A stretch of 64,000 nt of DNA, from NCBI GenBank assembly GCA_964236735.1, contig CAXSFM010000001.1, positions 122,015 to 186,014 of the forward strand, in the 5' to 3' direction. The notes beneath the pieces were generated by a model. That model searched no databases. It saw only the letters and a list, made by a program, of their open reading frames with translations, and was not told the origin of the DNA. This document shows, in pieces, positions 3,276-63,501 of the stretch. Position numbers and translations under genes: made by a program. Origin of the DNA: an uncultured Pyrinomonadaceae bacterium (GTDB lineage: Bacteria > Acidobacteriota > Blastocatellia > Pyrinomonadales > Pyrinomonadaceae). Each line of letters opens with the position of its first letter. Position 1 is the stretch's first letter.

Positions 3276-4186
3276 CTCTTCACACGCTTCGATAATCCTG
3301 ACATCAGCGACGGGATTTCCGCCGGCACTTCGCGCGGCAGATAGCCGAGTTGTCCCATCCGCGCGGCCAGACGGTCGCCCGCTCGCGCGTGCAGATAGAC
3401 GCCCCACACGGCGGCGATGTGCGGCATCGCGCCGCGCGCCGCGAGTCCCGCGACGATGCCGGCCAGCACATCGCCGGAGCCGGAAGCCGCCAGCCCGACG
3501 TTGCCCGCGTCATTGCGAAACGCTTCACCATCCGGCGTCGCGATGAAAGTCTCACGGCCTTTGAGCGCGACGACGGCGCGCAATTCTTTCGCGGCGCGGA
3601 GAGCGATGCGGAGCGAGTCGCGCTCGATCATGGATTTATCCGTCTCATTGATGCCCGCCATCTCGCCCGCATTCGGTGTAATGATGGCGCGTCCCTCGTG
3701 CGCGTGCAGCAATTTTTTGTCAGTGGCGAGACAGGAAATCGCGCCCGCGTCAAGCACCACAATAGATTTATCACAGCAACGCAGGACGGCTTTGACGAAG
3801 CGTCTCACCACAGTCGTGTCCATCAAGCCCGGCCCGATGCAGACAGCCTGCGCTTCTCCCAAATGTTTTTCGAGGCGCGCGACGCCCGCGTGCGAGAGTT
3901 CGCCAGCTTTGGTTTCAGGAAGCGCGAAGACGAGAGACTCCGGCACGTTCGACGCCACGAGAGGCGCGACGCTTTCCGTCGTGGCGATTTGTAATTTCCC
4001 CGCTCCCGCGCGCAAGCCCGCCGTCGCCGCCAGCATAATCGCGCCGGGCATCTCGGAACTGCCGCCGATGATGAGCAGACGCCCGCGCTCTTCCTTGTCG
4101 CCCTCCGCGCCGGGTTGCGGCAGACGAATCTTTTTGAGAAGGCGCGGCGTGATGTGGATTGATTGCTCTATCTTTTTCATTAACAT
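3272..4186 (-). CDS. nnrD: ADP-dependent NAD(P)H-hydrate dehydratase (YjeF C-terminal / Nnr dehydratase domain)
   Basis: YjeF_C-type motifs: LLIIGGS, GAIMLAATAGLRAGAG, GSGDVLAGIVAGL. Start moved to MLMKK at 4186, because the upstream part of the track ORF only translates the 4214-4286 inverted repeat. Confidence 0.75.
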   Translation of the reverse strand: MLMKKIEQSIHITPRLLKKIRLPQPGAEGDKEERGRLLIIGGSSEMPGAIMLAATAGLRAGAGKLQIATTESVAPLVASNVPESLVFALPETKAGELSHAGVARLEKHLGEAQAVCIGPGLMDTTVVRRFVKAVLRCCDKSIVVLDAGAISCLATDKKLLHAHEGRAIITPNAGEMAGINETDKSMIERDSLRIALRAAKELRAVVALKGRETFIATPDGEAFRNDAGNVGLAASGSGDVLAGIVAGLAARGAMPHIAAVWGVYLHARAGDRLAARMGQLGYLPREVPAEIPSLMSGLSKRVKR

Positions 4187-4213
4187 GACGATTCGCGATT
4201 GAATGCGACTCTT

Positions 4214-4286
4214 GTCAGTACCGCCTGCGGTAGCGGGCGGGTACTTACGTTGCAGACACCCGCCCGCTACCGCAGGCGGTACTGAC
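4214..4286. repeat. Perfect 29-bp inverted repeat (15-nt loop) in the spacer between the histidine-phosphatase gene and nnrD
   Basis: gtcagtaccgcctgcggtagcgggcgggt / acccgcccgctaccgcaggcggtactgac are exact reverse complements. No U-tract follows. Confidence 0.9.
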
Positions 4287-7999: not shown

Positions 8000-8662
8000 T
8001 TGACAGCCGCCGCATTCTACGACCTAGAGGGCACGCTCGTGAGCACCAATCTCGTGCATACGCTCGGCTTCTACGCGCGCAACCAGCAAGGTTTGCTCCG
8101 CAGCATTCGCAAGAGCGCCGCCACGCTCGTCAGCCTGCCCGTCTTCGCCGTCACGGATCAGGTCAGCCGCATGGTCTTCAACGACATGTTTTTCAAACGC
8201 TACAAAGGCGAATCCGAAGACCGTCTCCGTTACTTCGCCGGAGACTTGTTCGAGAAAGTGCTCAAGCCCGCCATCTTTCCCGGCTCGTTCGAGTTGATCG
8301 AAAAGTCGCGCAGCCTCGGACTCCGGCAAGTGGTTGTGACAGGCGCGCTCGACATCTCGGTTGAGCCGCTGATGAAGCACTTGGGAATTGACGACTACGT
8401 GGCAAATCGTCTTGAATTCGTCAACGGCGTCGCGACGGGACGACTGCTCCCGCCCGTGCTCGCCTCCGCGACGAAGGCTTCGTGGATACGCACCTACGCC
8501 GAGCGCGAGAAAATCAATCTCAACGAATCCTTCGCATACAGCGACAGCATGAGCGATTTGCCCATGCTCTCCATCGTCGGACACCCGGCGGCGGTCAACC
8601 CCGACATGCGCCTCAAACAGACGGCGCTTCATCACGACTGGCCGATACTGAATTTGAAGTGA
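8000..8662 (+). CDS. HAD-IB family hydrolase (phosphoserine-phosphatase-like)
   Basis: DLEGTL motif I near the N-terminus and a later HAD motif. TTG start preceded by a GGAGGA ribosome-binding site. Confidence 0.7.
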   Translation: MTAAAFYDLEGTLVSTNLVHTLGFYARNQQGLLRSIRKSAATLVSLPVFAVTDQVSRMVFNDMFFKRYKGESEDRLRYFAGDLFEKVLKPAIFPGSFELIEKSRSLGLRQVVVTGALDISVEPLMKHLGIDDYVANRLEFVNGVATGRLLPPVLASATKASWIRTYAEREKINLNESFAYSDSMSDLPMLSIVGHPAAVNPDMRLKQTALHHDWPILNLK

Positions 8663-8735
8663 TGAGTGATGAGTGATGAGTGATGAGTAAAGAAATTTTG
8701 CTCTCACTCATCACTCATCACTCATCACTCATCAC
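8659..8735. repeat. Intercistronic hairpin: (GTGATGA)x4 arm, 17-nt loop, (TCATCAC)x4 arm
   Basis: Exact 30-nt arms. The left arm contains the TGA stop of the HAD gene; the right arm ends 10 nt before the ATG of the next gene. Same repeat unit as the hairpin at 49114-49188. Confidence 0.9.
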
Positions 8736-8744
8736 TTAATAAAG

Positions 8745-10343
<1,599 letters not shown>

Positions 10344-17606: not shown

Positions 17607-17660
17607 GCGTCTTTGCGCCTTTGCGTGAAAATCATTGCTCACGCAAAGGCGCAAAGACGC
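17607..17660. repeat. Intercistronic hairpin (22-nt arms) between the PlsC-like gene and the lipid-kinase gene
   Basis: gcgtctttgcgcctttgcgtga / tcacgcaaaggcgcaaagacgc are exact reverse complements with a 10-nt loop. Confidence 0.9.
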
Positions 17661-18588: not shown

Positions 18589-18592
18589 AAAA

Positions 18593-18658
18593 GTTCAAGG
18601 TTCAAGATTCAAAGTTAATGATGCGCCAACTTTGAAGTTTGAACTTTGAACCTTGAAC
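18593..18658. repeat. Intercistronic imperfect hairpin built from GTTCAAG-like heptamers, between metH and the PlsC-like gene
   Basis: gttcaaggttcaagattcaaagtt ... aactttgaagtttgaactttgaaccttgaac. The arms are complementary, with one extra repeat unit on the 3' side. Confidence 0.8.
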
Positions 18659-18664
18659 TCGATT

Positions 18665-21600
18665 CTAATCTATCGAGAAGTATTTCGCTTCCTCGTGATG
18701 CACGATAATCGCGGAAGTAGATTGCTCCGGCACGAGTTGAAACTCCTCGCTCAGTTCTACTTCGATGCGCGCGGGGTCGAGCAACTCGAAGAGTTTGACT
18801 TGATCCTCAAGATTCGGGCAGGCCGGGTAGCCGAAGCTGAAACGCGAGCCTTGATAGCCTTGATGGAAAAGTTTCGTCATCTCTTTCGCGTCGCGCGCGG
18901 CGATGCCGAGTTCTTCGCGGATGCGCTTGTGCCAGAGTTCGGCGAGCGCTTCCGCGCACTCGACCGAGAGGCCGTGAAAGTAGAGATAGTCCGCGTAGTT
19001 GTCAGCCTTGAAAAGTTCCTGCGCGTAATCGCTCGCGCGTCGCCCGACGGTGACGAGGTGAAACGGCACGACATCAACGCGCCCCGAATTTTTTGACGCG
19101 AAGTAATCCGCGAGACACAGGCACTTGCCCGCCGGCTGGCGCGGAAAAGTGAAATGCAAACGCTCGGTGCGCTCGTCGTCTTCGTAGATGATGAGGTCGT
19201 TGCCTTCGGACTGGCAGGGGAAATATCCATAGACGACGCGCGGCGTCAAAAGTTGCTCGCGCTTCGCACGCTCTTTCAATTCTTGATAGACCGGTCGCAC
19301 CTTGCCGCTCACGAGCGCACTGTAGTCTTCCGCCGAACTCCTGCCCTGTTTGAATTGCCACTGGCCTTTGAAGAGCGCGGTTTCGTTGACGAAGGCGAAA
19401 ACGTCGTCGAGCGCGATGTCTTCAACGACACGCGAGCCGTAAAAAGGCGCGCGGGGAATCGGCGCGTCCGGGTTCACGTCGGAGCGCGTCGTGTGCGTCG
19501 TATCGCCGCTGATGCGCGTGGCAGCGCGCGTGCGAGCGACAGGGGCGCGGATGCCGAGTTTCGCGTCCTCGCCCACCAAATCTTCTACATCGTCAGCGAC
19601 GCTCTCGTTCGTCGCGGACGACGCAGCAGAGGCCGCAGCGACTTTCACTTTCTCATCCATCTCTTTGCCGTTCGCCGTGTTCGTCAGTTTGTCCATGACG
19701 TGCAGGCCGTCGAAAGCGTCGCGCGCATAAAAGAGCGTGCCTTTGTAAATCGCGGTCAAATCATCTTCGACATAGCGACGTGTTAATGCCGCGCCGCCAA
19801 GCACGACGGGCACGCCGATGCCGCGCTCGTTCAAGACCGCGAGATTCTCTTTCATCACGAGCGTGGATTTGACGAGCAGGCCGCTCATCCCGATGGCGTC
19901 CGCGCCGTGCTCATCAAAGGCCGCGAGGATGTTTTCCACCGGCTGCTTGATGCCGAGATTGATGACGCGATAACCGTTGTTCGTCAGAATGATGTCCACG
20001 AGATTTTTTCCGATGTCATGCACATCGCCCTTGACGGTGGCAAGCACCATCGTCCCCTTCGCCGTCGCGCCGCCCTTCTTCTCCATGAATGGTTCGAGGA
20101 AGCGCACCGCCGTCTTCATCACTTCCGCCGATTGCAGCACGAACGGGAGTTGCATCTGCCCGCTTCCGAAAAGTTCGCCGACGACTTTCATGCCGTCGAG
20201 CAGAATGTTGTTGATGATGTCGAGCGCGGGATAACTTTCCAGCGCGACTTTCAAGTTGTCTTCGAGTCCGAGTTTCTCGCCGTCAATAACGTGCTGCTTT
20301 AGTTTCTCTTCAACCGGTAGATTGCTCGTATCCTGCTTGACGCTCTTCGTCGTCACGCCCTCAAACAACGTCGTCAGTTCGCCGAGCGGATCATAGATGC
20401 ACACATCGCCCTCGAAACGCCGCTCGTCATAGATAAGTTCGTGCGCCACCGCGCGCTCGCGCTCGCCGATGCGATTAAGCGGCACGATCTTGCTGGCGTT
20501 GACGATGGCCGCGTCGAGTCCGGCTTCGACCGCATCATGCAGAAACACGGAATTGAGCGCGACGCGCGTCGCCGTGTTGAGTCCGAACGAAATGTTCGAG
20601 ACGCCGAGAATCGTGAAGCAGCCAGGCAATTCCGCCTTGATGCGACGAATGCCGTCAATCGTTTCGACCGCGTTGCGGCGGTCTTCCTCAATGCCGGTGG
20701 AGATGGGCAGCGCGAGCGGGTCAAAGAAAATGTCGGATGCAGTGAAACCGAGTTCGCCCGTGGCCTGCTCGTAAGCGCGCTTGGCAATACGCAGTTTTCC
20801 GTCGGCGGTGCGCGCCATGCCTTCCTCGTCAATCGTGCCGATGACGACGCTCGCGCCGTAGGCTTTCGCCAGCTCGATGACTTTTTTGAAACGCTCCTCG
20901 CCGTCCTCATAATTCGTCGAGTTGAGAATGCACTTGCCGCCCGCGTGTTGAAGCCCCGCTTCCATCTTTTGCCATTCGGTCGAGTCGAGCATGAGAGGGA
21001 TTTTCACGTTCGTCACGAGCCGCGAGACGAGCGAGTGCATATCGTCCACACCATCGCGCCCGACGAAATCAACGTTGACATCGAGAATGTGCGCGCCTTC
21101 GCGTTCCTGCTCGCGAGCCAGAGAGACAAGTCCGTCCCAATCCTCCGCGTTGAGCAAGTCTCTCATCTTTTTCGAGCCGGAAGCGTTGACGCGCTCGCCG
21201 ACGATGAGAAACGAAGTGTCCTGTTGGTACGGTTGCTGGATGTAGAGCGACGAGGCGGCGGGAACGTGCGGGACTTCGCGTCTGTGCGGCGTCACGTCGC
21301 GCACGGCTTCGACGACGGCCTTGAGATGCGCGGGCGTCGTGCCGCAACAACCGCCGACGATGGAGACGCCGAGGTCGCGCGCGAAGTGGAGCAGTTCGGA
21401 CGCGAGCGACTCCGGCGTCTCTTTGTAGTGTGCGTGCCCGCCGACGTTTTCCGGGATGCCGGCGTTGGGAATGACAGAGACGGGAAATTTCGAGTTTTCG
21501 CAGAGAAAGCGCACGTTCTCCGTCATCTGCTGCGGCCCGGTCGCGCAGTTCATGCCGACGACATCAATGGCGAACGGCTCAAGCGTGGTCAGCGCGGCGT

Positions 21601-22210
21601 TGATCTCCGTGCCCATCAACATCGTGCCCTGCTGTTCAATCGTGACCTGCGTGATGACGGGCACGCGCCGTTTCGTCGCGGCAAATTCATCGAAGATGGC
21701 GGCCAGCGCGGCTTTCGTCTGCAAGATATCCTGACATGTCTCGACGATTAAAATATCCGCGCCGCCGTCGAGCAGGCCGCGCACTTGCTCGGCGTAAGAG
21801 GCTTTCATGTCGAGAAACGTGATGTGACCGAGACTCGGCAATTTCGTCGTCGGCCCCATCGAGCCGGCGACGAAGCGCGGCTTCTCTGTCGTCGAAAAAT
21901 CGACGGCGACTTTCTTCGCGAGTTGCGCCGCTTTGAAATTCAACTCGTAGGCGAGATGCGCGATGTCGTATTCGGCGAGCACGATGGAGGCCGAGCCGAA
22001 AGAGTCCGTCTCGATCACGTCGCAGCCGACTTCGAGAAAACCCGCGTGGACATTTTCGATAGCCGAAGGTTTCGTGATGAGCAGATATTCGTTGCAGCCG
22101 TCGAGTCCGCCGAAGTCGTCCGGCGTCAGATTCTGCGTCTGGATATTCGTGCCCATCGCGCCATCAAAGACGACGATGCGCTCTTTTAATGTCTTCAGAA
22201 AATCGTTCAT
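18665..22210 (-). CDS. metH: Methionine synthase (cobalamin-dependent), full multi-domain MetH
   Basis: Hcy-binding, pterin-binding, B12-binding (DVHDIGKN) and AdoMet-activation domains are all recognisable. Start set at MNDFLKTL (22210), because the upstream extension only translates the terminator hairpin. Confidence 0.95.
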
Positions 22211-22250
22211 AAGTTGAATGCAGCCAGCGTTCAGCGATGAGCAGCGAGCC

Positions 22251-22285
22251 AAAAAAAACACCCCGCGCCAAACAACGCGGGGCTT
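22251..22285 (-). terminator. Intrinsic-terminator-like hairpin plus U8, about 40 nt upstream of the metH start on the metH strand
   Basis: Minus strand reads ccccgcg-ttgtttgg-cgcgggg then tgtttttttt. Sits inside a ~350-nt leader, so it is a candidate riboswitch/attenuator expression platform. Confidence 0.55.
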
Positions 22286-22586
22286 CATCTCGAAAGCCTG
22301 ATGATCGCGTGCCTTCTCGTGGAAGACTGCGCCGATGCTGTTTAGCGGTTTATTTTACGTGGCCGCAAGTCGCCTTAACTCACCACGTTTGCCCGTTATT
22401 GAAACATCGCGTGCCGGTCATGTCAAGAGAGGCTTTTGATATGGCGAGCCGGTCGTTTGTTTCTCTTTGAGATGAAGTGTCACGTCTTTCGCGCGTGCGT
22501 CTCGACATTGTTCTAGCATCCTTGCCTGTGCTAATTTCCAACTGTTCTTCGGCTTCAAACTTTGGATGAGGTCACCTGCCAAACAC

Positions 22587-24494: not shown

Positions 24495-25934
24495 TCAGTA
24501 AATATTGAAATTGTATTCGAGCGCGATGTATTGCGAGACGTTGCGCCCGTCCTTCTGCGCGGGCTGGAACTTGATACTCTTCGCCGCCGTGATGGCGCGC
24601 TCCGTCAATCCGTCCGGCAAGCCCTGTATGACGCTGATGCTCGTCACCGTTCCCGTCGCGCTCAACACGACGCGCAGCCTGACGAGGCCGGTGACGCCGT
24701 TCTTGCGCGCCTCTTCGGTGAAGCCCGGCTCCGGCCTCGACGTGATGACAGCCTTGCGCGTCACTTCATCTCGCCTGAAAACGCGATGATAGTCTTCCGG
24801 TGCGCTGCCACCCGGCCCGCCGGGGCCGCCCGTTCCGTATTGTGGGTCGCCACCACCTGTGTTCTCGCCGCGACCGTGGCCGTAGCCTTTGCCCTGCCCT
24901 GCCCCCTGCCCGCTCCCGTCGCCTGTGCCCTGACCGCCGCCCGTCCCCGAACCATCCGAAGGAATTTGCGAAAGCGATTTCGGGTCGCCGAAGGGAATCT
25001 GTCGCGGGTCTTCCGGCAACAGCAACGGATCGCCCTTGAGCGTCGGCATGACCGCGAGCGCAGGATTCTTGACCGTCGGCTGTCGCACGTTCGGCGCGAT
25101 GAGTTGATCGCTCATGCTGCCGGGCGCGATCTTGCCCTTTGAGGTCGGCAGCGAGTTGAGATTGCCGCCGCCACCGCCGCCTCCCGGTCTTTCATGGTTT
25201 TGCATCGAGCCGCCGCCCTTGCCATGACTCAGCCCGGCTGCGCCCGTCTCCGGCGTCGCTTGTTCTTTCGGGATGATGTTGCCGTTCACCCACTCGACGA
25301 CTTCCAAATCGTTTCGCTTTGTGTCGGCGTAAAACTGCTCGCAACGCCCGCCGAAATGAGACATGAACAGGCAACGATTGGCGACGGCCATCCAGACGCT
25401 GCCGATAAAAAGCAGCAGGCACATCGGGACGAGCAGCGCGGGCGCGGTATGCTCGCGCGCGAGAAAGCTTGCCCCAAGTTGGCCGTAGCCGGCGAACATG
25501 CGCCCCGTGAATCCGAACGGGTCGCGCTTAAATTCAGGCCACGTCAATTCCGATGAGCGCGCCACCGATGTGAGTTCGACGACGAGTCGCCGCAGCAGTC
25601 CTGTGTCTTCGAGAATGGTCAGACTGTAATCACGACGCGCGACAAAAACGGCGGCGTGCGCCGTCTCTTGCCAGAGGTTTAGTTGAATCTCTTGTGCCAT
25701 ACGTTTCGACAACCTTTCTTCATAACCCGTCCAGAAATTTTCCGCAGGGGAGACCGCTTCAATCGCATGGTCGAAAACTCTCAACGTCTGTGACAGCGAA
25801 CGATACTGGCTGAGACAAGCAGGACACTGTGACGCCTCCGCGAGCAGATGCCGCCCGCGCTCCGCGTCAAGCTCATCGAAGAGCATGTCAACCAACTTTT
25901 CCTGCGTCTCTAAGCAAACGTGCATCTTTATCAC
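24495..25934 (-). CDS. Anti-sigma factor (zf-HC2-like N-terminus, single TM, Gly-rich linker) fused to a TonB C-terminal domain
   Basis: N-terminal H-x3-C...CPAC zinc-finger pattern, one hydrophobic helix (ALLVPMCLLLFIGSVWMAV), a long G-rich linker, and a C-terminus (VTGLVRLRVVLSATGTV...QYIALEYNFNIY) matching the TonB_C fold pattern. Immediately downstream of an ECF sigma gene. Confidence 0.65.
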   Translation of the reverse strand: MIKMHVCLETQEKLVDMLFDELDAERGRHLLAEASQCPACLSQYRSLSQTLRVFDHAIEAVSPAENFWTGYEERLSKRMAQEIQLNLWQETAHAAVFVARRDYSLTILEDTGLLRRLVVELTSVARSSELTWPEFKRDPFGFTGRMFAGYGQLGASFLAREHTAPALLVPMCLLLFIGSVWMAVANRCLFMSHFGGRCEQFYADTKRNDLEVVEWVNGNIIPKEQATPETGAAGLSHGKGGGSMQNHERPGGGGGGGNLNSLPTSKGKIAPGSMSDQLIAPNVRQPTVKNPALAVMPTLKGDPLLLPEDPRQIPFGDPKSLSQIPSDGSGTGGGQGTGDGSGQGAGQGKGYGHGRGENTGGGDPQYGTGGPGGPGGSAPEDYHRVFRRDEVTRKAVITSRPEPGFTEEARKNGVTGLVRLRVVLSATGTVTSISVIQGLPDGLTERAITAAKSIKFQPAQKDGRNVSQYIALEYNFNIY

Positions 25935-25941
25935 TCCGGCA

Positions 25942-26574
25942 TCAACGACTCTCTAAAACAATCAACGCCCCGTCTTCCGACTCTTCGGCGACGACGCCCA
26001 ACGTTGCGCGCAACTTCAGCACCGCGCGGAACAGAGACTTCTTGACGCTGCCCGTCGAGCAACCGAGCGATTCGGAAATCTCCTGATACGTCATGCCCTC
26101 TTCATGCTTCAGCAAAAACATCAGACGCTGCTGCGGAGTCAACCCGGACAACGCGCCCATCACACGCCCCGCGAGTATCTTCCGTTGAAAGATGTCCTCC
26201 GTCTCCGCCAACTGTGAGCCGTGCGAGCGCATAGGCATCGCATCAACTTCGTCGAGATTCTCGAACCTGATGGGCGCACGCACATTTCCCTGCGACAACG
26301 TTTCCGCGCGACGGTCGTTGAGGAAAGTGTGAATCGTGATGCGTCGCAGCCATGTGTAGAAACTCGCTTCCGCGCGAAAGCCGCCGAGCGCTTTGAAGGC
26401 TTTCAGCCAGACATCCTGCGACAAATCTTCCGCGTCGTGCCGGTCGCGGCAATAGTGCAGCGCGAGCGTGTAGATGCGCCGCTCGTAATGTCTTGCGAGT
26501 TGGCAGAACGCCTCGGCGTCGCCCTCTTGCGCGCGCCTGATGAGATCGTCTTCGCCCGTAATGACCATGAACAT
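25942..26574 (-). CDS. RNA polymerase ECF-type sigma-70 factor
   Basis: Region 2 (DLSQDVWLKAF, YTWLRRI) and region 4 (TYQEISESLGCSTGSVKKSLFRA) motifs, ~200 aa. Confidence 0.85.
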   Translation of the reverse strand: MFMVITGEDDLIRRAQEGDAEAFCQLARHYERRIYTLALHYCRDRHDAEDLSQDVWLKAFKALGGFRAEASFYTWLRRITIHTFLNDRRAETLSQGNVRAPIRFENLDEVDAMPMRSHGSQLAETEDIFQRKILAGRVMGALSGLTPQQRLMFLLKHEEGMTYQEISESLGCSTGSVKKSLFRAVLKLRATLGVVAEESEDGALIVLESR

Positions 26575-33109: not shown

Positions 33110-33844
33110 TCAATGTGAAGGCGGCGTCTGTGCGTCGGCTTCGTTGCTATGCGTTATTTCACGCGGCTTAGACGCGGCGATTTGGCGGCGTAGTCCGGCG
33201 AGTTTATCTCTCAGGATGAACCCCTCGCCGGAACGCCTCGCTTCGCCGGAGAGTAACCAGTGCTCGCTTTCAAAAAGCGCGTGCAATTGATCGGCTCGCA
33301 GTTGCGGCAAGCGTCCCTCTTTCCATAAATTGAAGACCGCGACGACGGCGCGCTGATACATCCCGGCATCGTCTGAGAGTGCGGCGATGCGGAGGAGGTC
33401 GGCGATTGAGATTTCTGCTGGTGACAACTCCCAATTCTCTAAGAGTCGTCCGGCGAGGAGAGGTGTGGAGCGTAACTCTTCGCCCTTTGTGATGCACGAG
33501 GACAGGTCGCGCACGGTGTCTGGACTTCCCGCGCCTCGCATAATCAGTGTATCAAGAATCTCTCGATAAAGGCTCGTGTCGCCGGTCAGGTGCGCGTCGC
33601 GCAAAACCGTGAGGTCTCCGGCGGCGGCGCGCGCACGAAGTTCCGACGCGCGTAATGAGTTTAAGTTTTGATGAATTGCTTCGTCATCTTCCGTCGTGCT
33701 GTCGAGAGGCGCATCAAACAATCCGCGACTTTGCGTCGGCAGCAACTCTCTGGCTTCGGCACGAGGCGACAGCCGTTTCGTGAGATAGATCGCGAAAAAA
33801 GCGGCGACGAGCAGGAAAATCGAAATGAGCAGGATGGAGATCAC
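33110..33844 (-). CDS. Hypothetical membrane-anchored protein (start uncertain)
   Basis: The track ORF's first ~135 codons run through the 33951-34125 repeat element. A GTG at 33844, preceded by GAAGG, immediately before a TM helix (ISILLISIFLLVAAFFAIYL) is proposed as the start. Confidence 0.3.
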   Translation of the reverse strand: MISILLISIFLLVAAFFAIYLTKRLSPRAEARELLPTQSRGLFDAPLDSTTEDDEAIHQNLNSLRASELRARAAAGDLTVLRDAHLTGDTSLYREILDTLIMRGAGSPDTVRDLSSCITKGEELRSTPLLAGRLLENWELSPAEISIADLLRIAALSDDAGMYQRAVVAVFNLWKEGRLPQLRADQLHALFESEHWLLSGEARRSGEGFILRDKLAGLRRQIAASKPREITHSNEADAQTPPSH

Positions 33845-33950
33845 GGTATGCGCCTTCGACACCACGCGACAACTTCGCTCCGGCTTGATTTGCTTTGTGC
33901 CGCCTGACACTGGTGTATGGCAACATATAATACGTGGCGCGTTTCTGAAA

Positions 33951-34125
33951 GTTCTAGAGCGGTTTGCGAATGAGTGCGACATGAGAGAAAGACTTTTCAC
34001 CACAGAGGACTCAGAGAGACACAGAGAAAAGAGCGGAGGTTTGATTGTCCTCTCTGGTCTGCCTCTGTGCCCCTCTGAGTCCTCTGTGGTTAATCTCCGG
34101 TCACATTCATTTGCAACCCGCAGTA
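33951..34125 (+). repeat. 175-bp structured repeat element, copy 1 (MITE-like or small-RNA-like)
   Basis: Shares the 5' block (t)agcggtt.gcga.tgagtgcgacatgagagaaaga.ttttcaccacagaggac and the 3' block cctctgtggt.aat.tc..g..cattcatttgcaacccgcagta with copy 2 at 43577-43751. Has an internal long hairpin. Confidence 0.7.
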
Positions 34126-34455
34126 GCCGCTCCCTGTCGTGCAGAATAATGATTGGAAAACTGCTCACGACTTTGAGATTGTGGAAATTAACGCGCACGA
34201 TATAGTGCCGCGCCTGCACCATCTCGCATGAAGCGTCATCCTGTTTCAAAATCTTTCACGCAAACTTATCCGCACACTTCATCCTTAACTCGGCCTGTGC
34301 AAGCGAGGGCACGCGCTTTGCACTCGCGGCGTGTACCGGATCAAAGCCCTCGCCAGAGATTTCTCCCCGAAAACCTCGGTTGATCCACGCGCGTCTGCTT
34401 CGATTGCGTTTGTACGTCTCTTCGTCTCTAACATTTTTCAGGAGGGTCTGGCCCC

Positions 34456-43466: not shown

Positions 43467-43576
43467 GAAGGCGTCCTCGAAATAAAAAATGTTGACTTCG
43501 CTATCAGTATATAACGCGCGCCAGCAACTATCATCTTTTCGTCACGCTTATCTTGAGGCGCGACATCGTGCGAGTA

Positions 43577-43751
43577 TCTTTATAGCGGTTGGCGATTGAG
43601 TGCGACATGAGAGAAAGAATTTTCACCACAGAGGACACGGAGGGGCACAGAGGCAGAACAGAGGAGACCATCAAACCTTTGTCTTTCCTCTGCGCCCCTC
43701 CGTGTCCTCTGTGGTCAATTCTCTGGCCGCATTCATTTGCAACCCGCAGTA
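43577..43751 (+). repeat. 175-bp structured repeat element, copy 2
   Basis: Same 5' and 3' terminal blocks as copy 1. The internal hairpin arms carry compensatory substitutions relative to copy 1. Confidence 0.7.
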
Positions 43752-43833
43752 ACATTCCTTGAGTCACAAAAAGCCGTCGAGAATTAAGTTAATATTCTCG
43801 ACGGCTTTTACTTCTGCTTAACTGCGGACGCGC

Positions 43834-45273
<1,440 letters not shown>

Positions 45274-48106: not shown

Positions 48107-49117
48107 TTGCCACGCACCTTCCTGATGAAGCGCAAGCTGCTCAACGTCACACGCCGAATTTTGATTCTGCTGCTCGTCGTGTGGACGGTGGTGTCTCTGG
48201 TGACTCTGCTGATAGAACTCGTGCCGGGCGATCCGGCGACGGCGATTCTCGGCGATCAAGCTCCGCCCGAAGCCATCGCGCAATTCCGCCACAAGCACGG
48301 ACTCGACCGCCCCGCTTTCTTTTTTACTTTTGACGAAGACGCGGCGGGCGCGAAACATCTGCGCTGGCACGGCGCGGACAATCGTTACGTCGAATACTGG
48401 CGCGCGCTGCTGCACGGCGACATGGGCAACTCGTTTCGCACAGACCGCCCCGTCCTCAATTTAATTCTGGCGCGCTACGCGGCGACGATTCAACTCGCCA
48501 TCGCCGCGCTGCTTGTCGCCGTCGCCATCGCCGTCCCGCTCGGAGTCGTCGCCGGAACGCATCACGGGAAACTGCTCGACAACTTTCTCTCCGTCGTCGC
48601 GCTCATCGGCATCAGCCTGCCGAGCTTCGTCATCGGGCCGTTTTTGATTTACCTCTTCGCCGTCTGGCTGGGCTGGCTCGACCCTTCAGGACGCTTCAGT
48701 TGGTCGAGCATCATCCTGCCCGCCGTCACGCTCGGTGCGGCGCTCTCCGCTTTGCTCACGCGCATGGTGCGCTCGTCCGTCATTGAAGAGATGGGCGAAG
48801 ACTACGTCCGCACGGCGCGCGCGAAAGGCTTGAGCGAGCGGAAGGTCGTGTACAAGCACGTCCTGAAAAATGGTTTGATTCCGGTCGTGACGATTCTCGG
48901 ACTGCAACTCGGCGTGCTGCTCGCCGGCGCGATCATCACCGAAAAGATTTTCAACTGGCCGGGACTCGGCCTCTTGCTCGTTGACGACGGCATCGGCAAA
49001 CGCGATTACCGTCTCGTGCAGGGCTGCGTCCTCGTCATCAGCGTCACATACATTCTGGCGAACTCGCTGACCGACATGCTTTATCGCCGGCTCGACCCCA
49101 GAATACGAATACAGTGA
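48107..49117 (+). CDS. ABC transporter permease, DppB/OppB-like (binding-protein-dependent type)
   Basis: Six TM segments, EAA-like loop region (ARAKGLSERKVVYKHVLKN) and LIELVPGDPA N-terminal motif typical of OppB/DppB. True start may be the Met at 48125. Confidence 0.8.
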   Translation: MPRTFLMKRKLLNVTRRILILLLVVWTVVSLVTLLIELVPGDPATAILGDQAPPEAIAQFRHKHGLDRPAFFFTFDEDAAGAKHLRWHGADNRYVEYWRALLHGDMGNSFRTDRPVLNLILARYAATIQLAIAALLVAVAIAVPLGVVAGTHHGKLLDNFLSVVALIGISLPSFVIGPFLIYLFAVWLGWLDPSGRFSWSSIILPAVTLGAALSALLTRMVRSSVIEEMGEDYVRTARAKGLSERKVVYKHVLKNGLIPVVTILGLQLGVLLAGAIITEKIFNWPGLGLLLVDDGIGKRDYRLVQGCVLVISVTYILANSLTDMLYRRLDPRIRIQ

Positions 49118-49188
49118 TGAGTGATGAGTGATAAGTGACAAGATAAAACCTGTCTTTCACTCATCACTCATCACTCATCACTTATCAC
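49114..49188. repeat. Intercistronic hairpin built from GTGATGA units, between the two permease genes
   Basis: gtgatgagtgatgagtgataagtgacaag ... cactcatcactcatcactcatcacttatcac. The left arm includes the TGA stop of the upstream permease; the right arm ends 9 nt before the next ATG. Confidence 0.85.
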
Positions 49189-49197
49189 TGCTTTCAT

Positions 49198-50013
49198 ATG
49201 AACCGTCTCGCCATCGCCGGACTCGTCTTCATCGCCCTGCTCGTCGTGGTGGCTCTGTTCGCGCCGCTCATCGCGACGCATGACGTGGGAGCGACAAATC
49301 TCGCCGCGCGTTACCTTTCGCCTTCCTCGGCGCACTGGCTTGGCACTGATGCGACCGGGCGCGACATTTTTTCGCGCGTCGTCTTCGGTGCGCGAATCTC
49401 GCTGCGCGTCGGCGTCGTCGTCGTGCTCGTCTCCGGCATCATCGGCACTGTTATCGGCGCGCTCGCGGGTTATTACGGCGGGTGGATTGACAGCATCGTT
49501 TCGGGTTACGTCTTCAACGTCTTTCTCGCGTTTCCCGGCTTGCTGCTGGCGATTGCGATGGTGGCTTTTCTCGGCGCGGGCTTGAACAAATTGATCCTCG
49601 CGCTGTGCGTGATCGGTTGGGTCGGCTACGCGCGCCTGATTCGCGGGCAAGTGCTGAAGGTGCGCGAGTACGACTTCGTGCAGGCCGCACGCGCGCTCGG
49701 CGCACGCGACTGGCGAATCATCTTCGTCCACATTCTGCCGAACGCGATTCAACCGCTCATCGTGCAAGCGAGCCTCGGCATGGCGGGCGCGGTTCTGTCT
49801 GAGGCGTCGCTTTCGTTTCTCGGTCTTGGCGTGCCGCCGCCCGCTCCATCGTGGGGCGTGATGCTCGAAGAGGCGCGCGACTTGACGACTTTACGCATCG
49901 CTCCGCACGCGCTCATCGTGCCCGGCCTCGCGATTGCGCTGACTGTGCTGGCCTTCAACTTTCTCGGCGACGGGCTGCGCGAATATCTCGACCCGCGACA
50001 ACGACGGCGTTAA
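49198..50013 (+). CDS. ABC transporter permease, DppC/OppC-like
   Basis: N-terminal extracytoplasmic segment then five TM segments. ARALGARDWRIIFVHILPNA EAA-motif region. Confidence 0.8.
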   Translation: MNRLAIAGLVFIALLVVVALFAPLIATHDVGATNLAARYLSPSSAHWLGTDATGRDIFSRVVFGARISLRVGVVVVLVSGIIGTVIGALAGYYGGWIDSIVSGYVFNVFLAFPGLLLAIAMVAFLGAGLNKLILALCVIGWVGYARLIRGQVLKVREYDFVQAARALGARDWRIIFVHILPNAIQPLIVQASLGMAGAVLSEASLSFLGLGVPPPAPSWGVMLEEARDLTTLRIAPHALIVPGLAIALTVLAFNFLGDGLREYLDPRQRRR

Positions 50014-51997: not shown

Positions 51998-52087
51998 CAG
52001 TGGGCAGTGGCTAGTGGTCAGTAGTTACGTGACTTGCAAAATTGAAACAACTGCTCTACTCACTGACCACTAGCCACTGTCCACTGT
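51998..52087. repeat. Intercistronic imperfect hairpin built from CAGTGG(G/C) units, between the ABC-2 permease and the HDAC-like gene
   Basis: cagtgggcagtggctagtggtcagtag ... ctactcactgaccactagccactgtccactg. Starts 5 nt after the upstream stop and ends 6 nt before the next ATG. Confidence 0.85.
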
Positions 52088-53956: not shown

Positions 53957-56800
53957 ATGTCCTCAAAAGGTCTCACCAAATCTGCACTGGCCGTGCTTGG
54001 ATGCGCTGGTGCATCCGTTGCCGCGCCGCTCATCGCGCCGTATCTGGCGACGATCTCGCTTCCCTTCTTTGGAGCGATGCTGGCAGGCGTCATAACCAAT
54101 GAACAGCTTCAGGATAAATTAGTTGATGCCATCGGCAACACGGCTGCCGGATTCCTGACCAACATCGGCAGCTACGTTGCGACGGATAAACTTCCCGGCG
54201 CGTTGTCGCCCGATCACAACTTTCATCTCGAAAGAATGCTGGCAACGGCTTATCTCATCTCGCTCAAAGCAATCGAGCAGGAGTTCAAGGCAGATGCGGA
54301 CGAGAAGTTGCAGGTGCAGGCCGCGCAAATTTTCCCGTCCCTCAAAGCCAGAATCGAAAGAGGCTTGAAGCAGAAAGACCTTTCCGCGCTCTTTCCTGTG
54401 CAGGCCATCAACCAGCCAACTGGCACGGCCTTCGCCAATCGCTTTTCAGCGGAGAACGTGACGCTGCTCATCGCGGACGAAGAGAAATGGCACGAGCAGC
54501 TTGGTGAGGAAGTCGAGACGACACTGCGCCGGTGGCTCGACGAAGAGCGCGACACGGAAGCGCAGGTCGCGCCCATCACACAACTTTCGCTGGCAAGAGA
54601 CACACAACTGCCTGAGCCGCTGCGCTCGCGCCTGCGCGCGGAGATGCCGCACAGCATCGCGCATCAGATCAGCGAACTCGTCAAACACGATGAGTTCAAA
54701 GAGTCGTGGATTGCCTTTCAACGGGCGCACCTGCAAGGAATCGGGCGCGTCGTCGAGAGAATCGAAACCTCGCAGGAGGACATCCGGGAGAGCGTCGTCG
54801 CGCTGGCGCAACGGATCGAAGGCTTCGCCAGTCAGGACGAGTTCGTCGCGGCGATTGCCGATAAGCTACAAGTATTCCTGAGCCAGACCACTCTGCCACC
54901 GGACGAGTTGGCGCGACTGCTCGAACGCCAAAGCGAAGAGTTGCGCGGCCTCGAAGAACGGCTCGGCGCGAAGTTTGAGCAAGGCACTGAACGGCTTTCA
55001 ACCGAAGGCAAAGAAAACACCGCGCAGCTTTCTGAGCAAATCCAATCGCTCGACAAAAAGGTTGAACAGGTTAAAGAGGAGATTCTGCAAAGCGCGGTAA
55101 GAGCAGCCCGTAACAGGTTGAAGCAACTGCCCGCGCCGCCGCGCGATTTCACCGGGCGCGAGACGGAATTGAGAGAGTTACGGCAAGCTCTGCGGCAGGG
55201 CGGCGCGACGATTTCGGGCGTGCAGGGCATGGGCGGCGTGGGTAAGACCGCGCTGGCATTAGTGCTGGCGGATGAATTCAAAGACCAGTACCCGGAAGCG
55301 CAAATCTACCTCGATCTGCGCGGCACGAGCAAACAACCGCTTCCACCTGCCGAAGTGATGTGGCACGTCGTCAGTTCCCTTCAACCCGAAACGAAGCGCC
55401 CCGACGATGATCAATTGCCCAGCTTGTTCAATTCCGTACTCGACGACAAGCGTGTCCTGTTGTTCTACGACAATGCGGGAGACCCCGCGCAAATCGCGCC
55501 CCAATTACGGTGGCTGCCGCCTCGACAGTGTTTACTTCTGGTCACTTCACGAAAGCGTCTGGGTTTGCGCGGTATGTCTGAAAAGAATCTGGATGAGATG
55601 AGCAAGGAGGACGCAAACGCGCTGCTGCTCAAAATCGAGCCGCGCATCGGCGGGCACGCACCGGCGATTGCGGAGCAGTGCGGTTATCTCCCCATCGCGT
55701 TGTGCGCTGCCGCCAGCGTGTTGAAAATCAAAACCGCGCTGGCTCCCGAAGATTACCTGAATCGTTTGCGAATCAGAAAAGAGCGACTTTCCCTATATGA
55801 TGTAGAAAGAGACCTCAGCGTCGAAGCTTGTTTCGGCGAGAGCTACGACTTGCTGAACGAAGAACTGCCACGACGCTGGCGAATGCTGGCAATCTTCCCG
55901 ACCGACTTCGACGCGCCTGCGGCGGCAGCCGTGTGGCAGACGGACGTTGAGGCTGCGAAAGACTCGCTGGCGGAGCTTGAAGAATACAGCCTGCTCGATT
56001 GGGAAGAAGCCGCACAGCGTTACACCCTGCACGACCTCGCGCGTGATTTCGCGGACACGCGCTTGAGCGCAGCCGAACGCGAACAGGCAGGCTTGCTGCA
56101 CGCGACGCATTATTTACAGATTCTCTCGACGGCTGATGATCTTTTCCAAAAAGGCGGTGCAGCGATTGCCGGAGGGCTTTCGCTTTTCGACAACGAGCGC
56201 GTCAACATTGAAGCCGGTCAGGAATGGGCAGCCGTGCGCTTCGCCGGCAACGAGCAAGCCGCTCAATTGTGCAACATGTATCCCGATGCAGGCGCTTTCG
56301 TTCTCAGCCTGCGCCAACATCCACGCGATCTTATTCGCTGGCTTGAAGCCGCGTTGCCGGCTGCACAGCAACTCAGAGACGCGCGCGCCGCCGAAGGAAG
56401 ACACTTAGGCAATCTGGGCAACGCCTACGTCCGCTTGGACGAGACGCGCCGTGCCATCGAATTCCACGAGCAGTATCTCAACATCACCCGCGAGATCGGC
56501 GACCGGCGCGGCGAGGGCAACGCGCTGGGCAACATGGGAGTTGCCTACGCCGACTTGGGAGAGACGCGCCGTGCCATCGAGTTCTACGAGCAGGCTTTGG
56601 TCATCTCACGCGAGATCAGCGACCGGCGCGGCGAGGGTGCGGACTTGGGCAACTTAGGCATTGTTTATAAAGACTTGGGTGACACGGAACAGGCGATAGG
56701 ATATATGGAAGAGGCGGTGAAGATTTTAGAAGAGATTGAGTCGCCGAATGCCAACGTCGTGCGGGGCTGGCTGGAAAAGTTGCGCGGCAAGAGCGGGTGA
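53957..56800 (+). CDS. STAND NTPase: uncharacterised hydrophobic/helical N-terminal module + coiled coil + NB-ARC ATPase + C-terminal TPR repeats
   Basis: P-loop GMGGVGKTALALVLA within an NB-ARC-like region. At least four TPR-like repeats (LGNLGNAYVRLDETRRAIEFHEQ... repeated). First ~60 aa strongly hydrophobic. Confidence 0.8.
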   Translation: MSSKGLTKSALAVLGCAGASVAAPLIAPYLATISLPFFGAMLAGVITNEQLQDKLVDAIGNTAAGFLTNIGSYVATDKLPGALSPDHNFHLERMLATAYLISLKAIEQEFKADADEKLQVQAAQIFPSLKARIERGLKQKDLSALFPVQAINQPTGTAFANRFSAENVTLLIADEEKWHEQLGEEVETTLRRWLDEERDTEAQVAPITQLSLARDTQLPEPLRSRLRAEMPHSIAHQISELVKHDEFKESWIAFQRAHLQGIGRVVERIETSQEDIRESVVALAQRIEGFASQDEFVAAIADKLQVFLSQTTLPPDELARLLERQSEELRGLEERLGAKFEQGTERLSTEGKENTAQLSEQIQSLDKKVEQVKEEILQSAVRAARNRLKQLPAPPRDFTGRETELRELRQALRQGGATISGVQGMGGVGKTALALVLADEFKDQYPEAQIYLDLRGTSKQPLPPAEVMWHVVSSLQPETKRPDDDQLPSLFNSVLDDKRVLLFYDNAGDPAQIAPQLRWLPPRQCLLLVTSRKRLGLRGMSEKNLDEMSKEDANALLLKIEPRIGGHAPAIAEQCGYLPIALCAAASVLKIKTALAPEDYLNRLRIRKERLSLYDVERDLSVEACFGESYDLLNEELPRRWRMLAIFPTDFDAPAAAAVWQTDVEAAKDSLAELEEYSLLDWEEAAQRYTLHDLARDFADTRLSAAEREQAGLLHATHYLQILSTADDLFQKGGAAIAGGLSLFDNERVNIEAGQEWAAVRFAGNEQAAQLCNMYPDAGAFVLSLRQHPRDLIRWLEAALPAAQQLRDARAAEGRHLGNLGNAYVRLDETRRAIEFHEQYLNITREIGDRRGEGNALGNMGVAYADLGETRRAIEFYEQALVISREISDRRGEGADLGNLGIVYKDLGDTEQAIGYMEEAVKILEEIESPNANVVRGWLEKLRGKSG

Positions 56801-56894
56801 TTTGTGCCGACGGGTTCGCGCGTCATGTCATGGATTATCTTTATTGCTTAAGCAGCAACGACGTGAGCGGTGCGCCAGCTATTTTCAGGCAATA

Positions 56895-56952
56895 GCAAAA
56901 AGGCAAAAGTGAAGATGGAGAGCGAACTCCTTCTCTTCACTTTTGCCTTTTT
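56895..56952. terminator. Bidirectional hairpin terminator between the convergent STAND and roadblock genes
   Basis: gcaaaaaggcaaaagtgaaga ... tcttcacttttgccttttt with T/A runs on both sides. Confidence 0.6.
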
Positions 56953-56981
56953 ACTTCTGCCTTAAAGGAAAGCAGCTTTGC

Positions 56982-62646: not shown

Positions 62647-63501
62647 AATTTATTTGTTCCTTACGATCTTCGCCTGGCTCTTGCCATGTAGCTGTCTCAG
62701 ACGACGGCGCGCGCGGCGCACTCTGGCGCGGGTGGAACGCAACTGTTGCGGCGGCGTCTGTGTGTTGACGGAGGGGACGGATTTCATGTCGTAGTGAATT
62801 AGCTCAAGCGAGCTTCAGGGGAGCAAAGACGTGCCACTGTCGTGACAGGAGAAGTGGAAGAGTTGAATCGAAACGGACTCTCTCTTGGGTGGAGATGAAA
62901 AGCAGGAAGGTCGTGACAGTTCGGAACACGCGCGCAGGCGAAGTTGCTCCTCTTCGATGCGGCGAATTCGGCTTGGCCGACTCTCCTTCGGTAACCCGGC
63001 CAAGTCAAAATCGCGCGTCGCTTTTCTGACTCCCGTCGGCTTTGCGGCCCACGCTCGCGCGTGGTGTGCCTTTATCGGTTGAGTTTCAAAGAAAGGGGCG
63101 CAAGCCTGATCTGGTTTCAGTGAAACCGCCATCTCGCACCTCTTTTCAATCGCCGGTGGATTTGCTCGACCCTCTCATGTCTGCACAGAGAATCTTTTCA
63201 AGTCCCATCCGACAATGAAGAATATAGACTATCGTGTTTGCCCCTGTCAATCGTTAATTTACATTGTTTAATCTTAATTATTTATACACTTACAGGCAAG
63301 AGATCGTCTGATTCCGAGTTTATTGGAAAGTTGCCGGACGATTTCCATAAATTCTTTCAACGCTTTTTTCTTAACTTTAAGGCCCGACGGCCAATTTTGG
63401 AGCGCATCTTTTTCTTTATTTCAACCTTCTTTTAAGACACGAGAAGCGCGTCAAGTATGGAGTCTTGCCACTTAACCGTGCGGCAGTTAGGATGCTGCCT
63501 T

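Follow-up and report, generated by a model that had tools for sequence, protein, structure and literature searches.

Does a repeat whose stem is kept by paired base changes have to be an RNA gene, or can it be a piece of DNA that stays palindromic by other means? The question is raised by a 64,000-nucleotide stretch of contig CAXSFM010000001.1 (hereafter the window) from an uncultured Pyrinomonadaceae bacterium, in which one repeat occurs twice. The original prediction, made from the letters alone, had described a 175-bp element with covariation in its central hairpin and had proposed either a mobile element resembling a miniature inverted-repeat transposable element (MITE) or a small-RNA gene family. 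We lean, without great assurance, towards a low-copy, non-coding composite DNA palindrome of the kind represented by MITEs and by repetitive extragenic palindromic (REP) sequences.

Extent and copy number of the repeat

Pairwise alignment with 50-nt flanks placed the edges of the shared unit at TA(G/T)AGCGG and at CCCGCAGTA, giving 170 nt. The repeat thus exists twice as announced, with a shared block slightly shorter than the 175 bp first given. Both copies were delimited by pairwise alignment, BLAST, folding and a hidden Markov model (HMM):

33956..34125, plus strand: copy 1, whole composite palindrome TAGAGCGG...CCCGCAGTA, 170 bp
43582..43751, plus strand: copy 2, whole composite palindrome TATAGCGG...CCCGCAGTA, 170 bp

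The equal length and orientation of the copies that had been reported are therefore correct. In direct alignment 140 of 175 columns are identical, and BLAST joins the copies over their first 53 nt (94%, E 7e-18) and their last 65 nt (88%, E 1e-10), which bears out the conserved 5' and 3' blocks of the original prediction. Conserved words of 21-22 nt are confined to the two copies in the window (shuffles expect 0), and an HMM built from the pair detected no further copy in the 64 kb.

A third copy came from a profile search of proteins, in which a word index gave access to 5.8 billion proteins and 1.84 billion representatives were scanned in full. This copy is the open reading frame (ORF) P0001, of 65 aa, on another contig of 55.8 kb. 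Back-translated, P0001 is the same element with an intact 5' outer arm (SSVVKSLSLMSHSFANRY), the canonical stem ACACAGAG and the loop orientation of copy 1 (TIKPPLF), and its 3' outer arm has lost about 14-15 nt of its core. Measured against the canonical arm, one compensated substitution is present in each of the two window copies. With this partly deleted copy, the element is not limited to the two of the window.

Searches for the outer part in genomes and metagenomes used exact 19- and 20-mers. The word GTGCGACATGAGAGAAAGA had one chance match among 185,579 species genomes (L002) and CATTCATTTGCAACCCGCAG one in the JGI metagenomes (L003), neither with an element around it; in viral contigs one outer arm had 0 matches and the other 1 (L014). 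Contigs with identical IF-1 proteins were short metagenome contigs only, none of which extends to the insertion sites. Contig ends in Logan were considered as a sign of repetition and set aside: L001 stops inside both copies, but the adjoining L033 begins and stops inside genes, so these breaks are uninformative. Within the window, a match at 1933-1947 was dismissed, as it lies inside a coding sequence and has 2 mismatches. One other site is a possible distant relative:

4195..4286, plus strand: GCGATTGAATGCGAC followed by an unrelated perfect 29-bp hairpin (motif match; HMM E 4.3)

Here GCGATTGAATGCGAC is identical at 14 of 15 positions to the outer-arm motif GCGATTGAGTGCGAC of copy 2, and is exact only to the degenerate pattern GCGAWTGARTGCGAC. 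It stands 4 nt before the hairpin, between the histidine-phosphatase and NAD(P)H-hydrate dehydratase genes, and its kinship to the element is uncertain because there is no matching 3' arm.

Fold and composite structure

Each copy folds into a single long imperfect hairpin (copy 1, -93.2 kcal/mol, z -10.0; copy 2, -100.6 kcal/mol, z -12.1), and no shuffled sequence was as stable. The minus strands fold equally well (-92.7 and -99.9 kcal/mol, respectively), the hairpin persists in both copies under DNA parameters, and the consensus fold of the two comprises 55 pairs. The hairpin has two layers, with the following parts:

33956..33995, plus strand: copy 1, 5' outer arm, an imperfect terminal inverted repeat with the asymmetric internal loop ATGAGAGAAAGACTT (alignment, fold)
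33996..34093, plus strand: copy 1, inner 98-nt hairpin TTCACCACAGAGGAC...GTCCTCTGTGGTTAA, apical loop with GGTTTGAT (repeat finder, alignment, HMM)
34094..34125, plus strand: copy 1, 3' outer arm, TCTCCGGTCACATTCATTTGCAACCCGCAGTA (alignment, fold, word counts)
43582..43621, plus strand: copy 2, 5' outer arm (alignment, fold)
43622..43718, plus strand: copy 2, inner 97-nt hairpin, whose interior and loop (ATCAAACC) are the reverse complement of those of copy 1 (repeat finder, alignment)
43719..43751, plus strand: copy 2, 3' outer arm (alignment, fold, word counts)

The outer layer (about 40 + 32 nt, or some 72 nt) carries the asymmetric loop on its 5' side, and in both copies GCGG.TTGCGAATGAGTG pairs with CATTCATTTGCAA.CCCGC. 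This pairing extends over about 20 nt and is imperfect, with 2 G-T pairs and 1-3 mismatches; as inverted repeats the ends read TA(T/G)AGCGGTT(T/G)GCGA(A/T)TGAGTG and TACTGCGGGTTGCAAATGAATG. TA is found at both ends of both copies and, by back-translation, of the third. The inner hairpin is near-perfect: it starts with TTCACCACAGAGGAC and ends with GTCCTCTGTGGT(T/C)AA, and its arms are built of CACAGAGG-like units, with three phased C-R-CAGAGG boxes in each arm. Two pairs of the main stem are compensated, T34011-A34078 of copy 1 being A43637-T43703 in copy 2, and A34013-T34076 being G43639-C43701. The unit is a composite, which had been missed in the original prediction: lineage-specific outer arms enclose an inner hairpin that belongs to a widespread family, described below.

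Inversion of the core between the copies

The two inner regions were compared in both orientations. Aligned directly, they share 71 of 97 positions with five gap stretches; when that of copy 2 is reverse-complemented, 77 of 94 positions are identical with a single internal gap. The repeat finder likewise showed that the inner 3' half of copy 1 and the inner 5' half of copy 2 are 88% complementary over 57 nt. The apical loop, which is not palindromic, reads GGTTTGAT in copy 1 and ATCAAACC in copy 2, and the two copies run in the same direction in their outer arms and in the outermost inner-hairpin bases. The central 60 nt or so, apical loop included, are inverted in copy 2 relative to copy 1, in the manner of a flip/flop. 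The original prediction had overlooked this flip.

This inversion bears on how the covariation should be read. Two further "compensatory" pairs near the apex of the direct alignment were artefacts of it and were discarded, while the two main-stem compensations are untouched by the flip, because flipping a perfectly paired position leaves the sequence unchanged. Of the earlier claim that the central stem had diverged and stayed complementary, the compensated pairs are real in the consensus fold, but the interior is inverted and not simply diverged. Nor did the covariation disappear in a structural alignment, since these two pairs remain. What does not hold is the step from covariation to selection on RNA: the arms of a DNA palindrome can stay complementary by templated repair, so two such pairs are not diagnostic. 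Template switching or conversion within long inverted repeats yields both flips and arm-to-arm compensation, as in quasi-palindrome mutagenesis and flip/flop hairpins. We also considered an inverton (an invertible promoter) and rejected it: what is flipped measures only some 60 nt, its loop 11 nt, against a promoter segment of at least 100 bp, and no recombinase gene was seen among the window ORFs scanned (44 of 49).

The flip could also have come about without recombination, if the inner 98-nt hairpin were itself mobile and had re-inserted in the opposite direction in a preferred site of an older outer palindrome. The inner hairpin is indeed found alone, without outer arms, in many other genomes, and the 5' outer-arm motif stands once beside a different hairpin (4195-4286). 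Only the interior is flipped, however, since the inner termini keep their orientation (5' TTCACC in both copies; 3' GGTTAA and GGTCAA), and the outer-arm junctions are at identical positions. Inversion within the stem therefore fits better than excision and re-insertion, and we regard two nested independent elements as a most improbable explanation.

Coding and RNA-gene readings

Open frames span both copies on both strands, and two of them are called as proteins in public collections: P0124 (370 aa; 33110-34249, minus strand), whose first 125-126 residues or so run through copy 1, and P0002 (74 aa; 43531-43767, minus strand), which crosses copy 2. Taken at face value, the element would encode the N-terminal part of the one and the other as a 74-aa protein. 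However, a stop-poor palindrome is expected to be open on both strands, and one-base indels shift the frame between the copies, the same strand reading RLTTEDSEGHRG in copy 1 and RIDHRGHGGAQR in copy 2. Searched against proteins, a profile of the translations returned only P0124, P0002, P0001 and generic hairpin ORFs of other organisms, so that there are no homologues except copies of the element. The GC content at third codon positions is also atypical in the extension (0.56; the remainder of that ORF has 0.62, and most candidate genes of the window lie at 0.64-0.80). A coding role is hardly credible in our view, and the extension of P0124 and the whole of P0002, two public annotations, are probably artefacts of the palindrome. 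The 135-codon N-terminal extension of a 379-codon ORF, which the original prediction had called spurious, is very probably just that, given the shifted frames in copy 2 and homologues that are element copies only. Likewise, both copies are intergenic by our reading, as had been stated, but the source annotation calls P0124 and P0002 across them.

A structured RNA deserves more attention. On this account the element would be a family of small RNA genes, or a cis-regulatory RNA, transcribed from the plus strand with the hairpin as the functional molecule. The fold is very stable and has compensated pairs, but the minus strands are as stable as the plus strands. Two G-U pairs of the outer stem exist on the plus strand only, in both copies, whereas three A-C mismatches of the inner stem would be G-U on the opposite strand. 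Assigning a strand from G-U versus A-C mismatches was therefore given up: the events are too few and the signals of outer and inner stem conflict. A near-consensus sigma-70-like site precedes copy 1 by 25 nt, but we found no promoter or terminator common to the two copies and no U-tailed terminator after either, and relative to the nearest promoter the two copies point in opposite directions. In several phage loci, single arms of the inner motif do lie on the sense strand 15-45 nt before start codons (see below).

A strand-specific RNA would show complementary sequences in the two copies at the loop and inner arms, and with its interior inverted a strand-specific RNA gene is unlikely; in addition, the third copy is without the core of its 3' outer arm. 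At gathering score, Rfam 15 has no match on the element. A permissive search (E<=10) returned overlapping matches to nearly nothing but generic miRNA-precursor models, 30-80 bits under threshold, besides one equally weak small RNA (Ocean-V) and one snoRNA (snoR116), which is noise typical of long hairpins. A retron msr-msd was rejected, as there is no msr match and no adjacent reverse transcriptase (the neighbours are a hypothetical membrane protein, FecR/DUF6600, ATP-grasp and TonB_C genes), and an integron attC reading was rejected as well. Altogether, the small-RNA gene family of the original prediction is not borne out: promoter and terminator are not shared, the strands fold equally, the loop and inner arms are inverted and Rfam has no match. 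We consider an RNA gene or cis-regulatory RNA unlikely.

The inner hairpin in viral contigs

The pattern TTCACCACAGAGGACNCNGAG was found in 18 viral contigs of IMG/VR (L015-L032) with 42 to 70% GC, while the reversed pattern, used as a control, was found in 0. Their inner-arm motif, TTCACCACAGAGGACACAGAG..CACAGAGG, takes two forms, the hairpin and the single arm. The hairpins (in L016, L018, L021, L022, L028, L029 and L030) measure 98-188 nt and have the same termini around unrelated interiors; the single arms (three times in L015, and in L020/L023, L024 and L031) have a sharp 5' edge at TTCACC and are often followed, 15-45 nt downstream on the same strand, by a ribosome-binding site and a start codon. 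An HMM of the window element matched the viral loci only at model positions of about 37-144, never at the outer arms, and showed further copies, three in L030 and two in L018, in which CGCAGAGG replaces CACAGAGG on both arms. The comparison of L016 with L025 as a second example of a flip was dropped, L025 being the same contig reversed.

Two observations concern other arrangements of the motif. In L015 arms also occur "inside-out" (…CTCTGTGGTGGAAA-9 nt-TTCACCACAGAGG…), twice, each time before a gene. Around positions 150-230 of L017 the motif, read in reverse complement, codes for the hydrophobic core of an apparently genuine signal peptide (MKKLLLFSVFLCVLCGEG...), which suggests that the motif can be absorbed into coding sequence.

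We then aligned the first and last 36 nt of 12 hairpins, the two window copies included, and counted 22 pairs. In this alignment 91% of the cells are paired, and 6 of the 22 pairs are changed on both sides, in 13 cells. The covariation score was 0.177, compared with 0.088 in shuffles (0 of 500 reach the observed value) and 0.04-0.12 with slid partners. As a caveat, these instances came from searches with a pattern or model based on the window element, and a partner arm was a condition of their choice; the covarying positions, though, lay outside the selection. The CAGAGG and C.C.GAG positions are invariant; variation falls at purine positions and is compensated in the other arm. By its termini (TTCACCACAGAGGAC...GTCCTCTGTGGT.AA) and the three C-R-CAGAGG boxes of each arm, the inner hairpin defines a family with a wide distribution among bacteria and phage contigs. 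Hairpins of five viral loci had no Rfam match, and nothing relevant to the family turned up when the literature was searched for the sequence or for peptide words from the spurious ORFs.

One of the loci also contains a transposable element beside the motif. In L022, a complete motif hairpin (1664-1788) and a solo 3' arm (3786-3809) flank an IS110-family transposase gene (2716-3717), whose product matches Pfam DEDD_Tnp_IS110, Transposase_20 and a PHROG transposase family. The non-coding region upstream of this gene has words of 8-12 nt in common with the motif and with the right-end junction of the element itself: its 315 nt share six 8-mers with the 51 nt around that junction, among them the junction word AATTCCGTG (opposite strand) and GTGTCCTCT, whereas the average for random 51-nt segments of the locus is 0.46, six being reached by 0.65% of them. 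Common words of this sort are what a guide (bridge) RNA programmed for the motif would show. Insertion of IS110/IS1111 elements is programmed by a guide RNA, and REP sequences are frequent targets. Judging from the shared words and from this behaviour of IS110/IS1111, the element in L022 looks like one aimed at the motif. The same contig has an RT-3 RNA at 8743-8892 (Rfam RF03068, 147 bits).

It is possible, if doubtful, that all these features belong to a single undescribed family of palindromes spanning phyla, with TTCACC...GGTGAA termini, three C-R-CAGAGG boxes per arm phased at about one helical turn and variable interiors, occurring in bacteria and phages as hairpins and as single arms before gene starts, and serving as programmed target of at least one IS110-type (bridge-RNA) element. 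If this were true, the near-identity across genomes would mean either that a conserved protein or RNA machinery recognises the motif or that it has spread horizontally very recently and broadly, and the core flip with its automatic arm compensation would be the signature of a single-stranded hairpin intermediate in propagation or repair.

Genomic context of the two copies

The window is ordinary chromosomal DNA. The genes on either side of copy 1 are divergent, one for a hypothetical membrane protein (minus strand) and one for FecR/DUF6600 (plus strand); copy 2 is flanked by the terminator of a TonB_C gene and by an ATP-grasp promoter, the two genes being on the minus strand. The signals around them are as follows:

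33904..33931, plus strand: sigma-70-like site CTGACA-16-TATAAT (11/12), in the unique flank 25 nt before copy 1; outside the repeat and absent at copy 2
34196..34455, plus strand: conserved promoter and leader of the FecR/DUF6600 gene (ACGATATAGTGCC..CCTGCACCATCTCGCAT...), starting about 70 nt after copy 1; kept in relatives without the element
43506..43534, minus strand: promoter-like site of the ATP-grasp gene, with a -10 TATACT kept in relatives, about 70 nt from the 5' end of copy 2
43769..43809, minus strand: intrinsic-terminator-like hairpin of the TonB_C gene (repeat finder, alignment)

Four related Pyrinomonadaceae loci (L010-L013) were compared with the window, and no trace of the element was found in their syntenic intergenic regions. 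The gene order TonB_C, ATP-grasp, S9 peptidase is the same in L010, L012 and L013 (L011 begins at the ATP-grasp gene), and the TonB_C/ATP-grasp spacer, of 367 nt in the window, has 135, 206 and 144 nt, respectively, so that it is 160-230 nt shorter in these relatives, in which the terminator and the TATACT are kept. On the side of copy 1, similarity to L010 resumes about 20 nt past its end, and the block starting with ACGATATAGTGCC..CCTGCACCATCTCGCAT upstream of the FecR/DUF6600 gene is conserved in all relatives compared. Over the 240-260 nt or so before this gene the blocks ATATAGTGCC, CCTGCACCATCTCGCAT and GGGCACGCGCTTTGCAC are strongly conserved in all four lineages. The aligned upstream blocks are:

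34196-34455 of the window
20509-20754 of L010
18996-19233 of L012
20612-20844 of L013

RNAalifold gave no convincing consensus structure for this leader (-7 kcal/mol), and the region is probably a promoter plus an operator or leader. At both sites the element is in promoter-distal spacer DNA, and its orientation relative to the nearest downstream promoter is reversed between the two.

Other hairpins with tandem 7-9-nt stem units (AGTGATG, GTTCAAG, CTTTGCG, CAGTGGN, GATTTCG) are numerous between the genes of this genome and of its Pyrinomonadaceae relatives. Some are syntenic, such as that of the spacer between two peptide-permease genes, which is built of GTGATGA in the window and L012 and of GATTTCG in L013. 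Their positions are:

8657-8737, 49103-49199, 18590-18659, 17607-17660, 51998-52086 and 56883-56966 of the window: tandem-unit hairpins
4351-4451 of L010; 3097-3171 of L012; 2075-2171, 3120-3216 and 4265-4356 of L013: tandem-unit hairpins in relatives

The remainder of the window offered a few independent observations. A SAM-II (SAM_alpha) riboswitch match at 22321-22396 (minus strand; 41 bits for a gathering score of 36) stands directly upstream of a B12-dependent methionine synthase gene (18665-22288, minus strand) in this apparent acidobacterium, and a c-di-GMP-I riboswitch lies near the window end (62987-63080, minus strand). Two paralogous TonB_C-domain genes of 479 aa (24495-25934 and 43834-45273, both minus strand) are 71-77% identical at the DNA level in blocks; the first comes immediately after a gene for an extracytoplasmic function (ECF)-type sigma factor (25942-26574), and the second has copy 2 directly downstream. 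At 56408-56647 a direct tandem repeat of 120 nt (76% identity) lies within a TPR-containing ORF of 947 aa (53957-56800), upstream of its Pfam TPR matches (residues 855-926).

Discussion

A DNA repeat of the MITE/REP type fits the data better than an RNA gene does: its ends are inverted and carry TA, its copies are dispersed between genes and include a decayed one, it is missing at the syntenic sites of relatives, both strands are alike and the interior flips. The MITE-like nature proposed in the original prediction is upheld by the imperfect terminal inverted repeats with TA ends, by the dispersed intergenic copies and the third among them, and by the absence from the syntenic sites of relatives. 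In such a case the 170-bp unit would be dispersed by an enzyme acting in trans on the inverted ends and inserting it at TA, and the cognate insertion sequence would be expected to have ends beginning with TATAGCGGTTTGCGAATGAGTG. Complementarity of the arms and flipping of the core would then come from DNA-level processes typical of long inverted repeats, the candidates being intra-strand template switching, gene conversion between arms and a hairpin intermediate. Read-through transcription would give a double-stranded RNA hairpin of about 75 bp, whose effect between the neighbouring transcription units would be no more than that of a passive roadblock or of a substrate for RNase III.

Several points weigh against a mobile DNA palindrome. 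A target-site duplication is not demonstrated, because TA is conserved with the element, of which it may be the terminus, and no further direct repeat stands beside either window copy. No transposase, REP-associated tyrosine transposase (RAYT), recombinase or reverse transcriptase was found among the 44/49 window ORFs scanned. The known copies number three, and the outer part may be confined to one lineage, as its exact-word matches were due to chance only. The relatives are distant and no exact empty site can be drawn: the best S9 peptidase homologues are 75-81% identical, the named ones being mostly Pyrinomonadaceae or Acidobacteriota metagenome-assembled genomes, with one Anaerolineae at 70%; the absence in relatives could reflect loss as well as gain. 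Copy 1 may well be transcribed from the near-consensus promoter 25 nt upstream of it, although this is not assured because the TATAAT (33926-33931, within the near-palindrome ACATATAATACGT) could just as well serve the divergent minus-strand gene as its -10 region. Finally, from sequence comparison, the conservation of the boxes across hosts of 42-70% GC suggests a function such as protein binding rather than pure selfishness. We only infer mobility, since no transposase partner was found, TA is perhaps the terminus, the relatives are too distant for an exact empty site and only three copies are known.

The last of these points leads to a domesticated, REP-like functional site, in which the hairpin would be kept for binding a conserved host or phage protein, or for insulating or stabilising transcripts, with dispersal as a secondary matter. 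The CAGAGG and C.C.GAG boxes are invariant and 9-10 nt apart, with purine-only, compensated variation, in hosts of very different GC content. Copy 2 is placed between a terminator and the next promoter and copy 1 between divergent genes, the many other intergenic hairpins of tandem 7-9-mers are in part syntenic, and an IS110-type element is apparently aimed at the motif, as is known for REP sequences. But neither a binding protein nor a phenotype is known, conservation of the outer arms stops at this genome, relatives do without the element in both of these intergenic regions and, as the hairpin is not followed by a U-tail, it is not a classical intrinsic terminator. Because the inner boxes are conserved across very different genomes we give substantial weight to such a role, while judging it rather improbable as the primary explanation.

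Whatever the role of the hairpin, compensated changes in a stem need not mean an RNA gene, and the orientation of the loop reveals a flip at the DNA level. Through its core hairpin this acidobacterial repeat is tied to a conserved motif whose phage and bacterial contigs differ widely in base composition. If the family is real and undescribed, it would provide a tractable REP-like element common to hosts and viruses, a natural set of targets for bridge-RNA recombinases and a candidate protein-binding or translation-proximal signal in phage operons.

Comparison with known repeats

MITEs are defined as elements of 50-800 bp without transposase, with terminal inverted repeats of at least 10-15 bp and a target-site duplication of 2-10 bp (PMC11602168). 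Like them, the present element is short (170 bp) and without coding capacity, its frames not being conserved and its protein homologues being its own ORFs, and it has terminal inverted repeats, the outer arms pairing over about 20 nt in both copies. The flip recalls the inverted terminal repeats of adeno-associated virus, a parvovirus with flip/flop hairpins, in which the interior of a hairpin likewise exists in two reverse-complement orientations with unchanged flanks. This is a mechanistic analogy only. The present element is chromosomal and internal, not the end of a replicon, and we know of no hairpin-primed replication for it; the analogy may serve just to illustrate flips as a DNA-level signature.

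Correia elements of Neisseria, also called Correia repeat enclosed elements (CREE) or Neisseria miniature insertion sequences (NEMIS), are closer in build. They are non-coding and intergenic, measure 100-170 bp, have terminal inverted repeats of about 20-26 nt and TA at both ends, and can fold as a whole into a long hairpin. The first 8 nt of the present element (TATAGCGG) match the Correia repeat TATAGTGG (PMC5039591) at 7 of 8 positions. Beyond these 8 nt the inverted repeats are unrelated, and the element does not have the 26-bp repeat TATAGTGGATTAA(C/A)... of Correia elements. Correia copies number about 100-250 per Neisseria genome (PMC5039591), whereas the present element, with 3 known, appears to be of low copy number. 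It also differs in that no outward-facing promoters were found in its ends, by eye or by scan, and in that its core is a separate widespread hairpin, inverted between copies. Cyanobacterial genomes offer short tandemly repeated repetitive (STRR) heptamers and small nested dispersed repeats, that is, intergenic hairpins of tandem 7-9-nt units and small repeats nested in larger palindromes, as in the present element. The phylum and the units are different, however, and the inner family has three phased boxes in fixed number and defined termini, unlike a variable, microsatellite-like array.

The inner family also resembles RAYT-associated REP sequences and REPINs (REP doublets forming hairpins): both are extragenic palindromes, both occur as doublet hairpins of about 100 nt beside single-arm "singlets", and both keep the complementarity of their arms. 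REP sequences are, in addition, targets of IS110-family insertion, as L022 suggests for the motif. REPs and REPINs bear a GTAG or CGTC tag at one end of each palindrome (PMC3733652); the present ends are TA(T/G)AGCGG and CCCGCAGTA, with inner termini TTCACC and GGTGAA, and have no such tag. The present arms are not short palindromes themselves, and no RAYT gene was seen among the window ORFs scanned. While each REP family is specific to a lineage, the inner motif described here is nearly identical across contigs of 42-70% GC.

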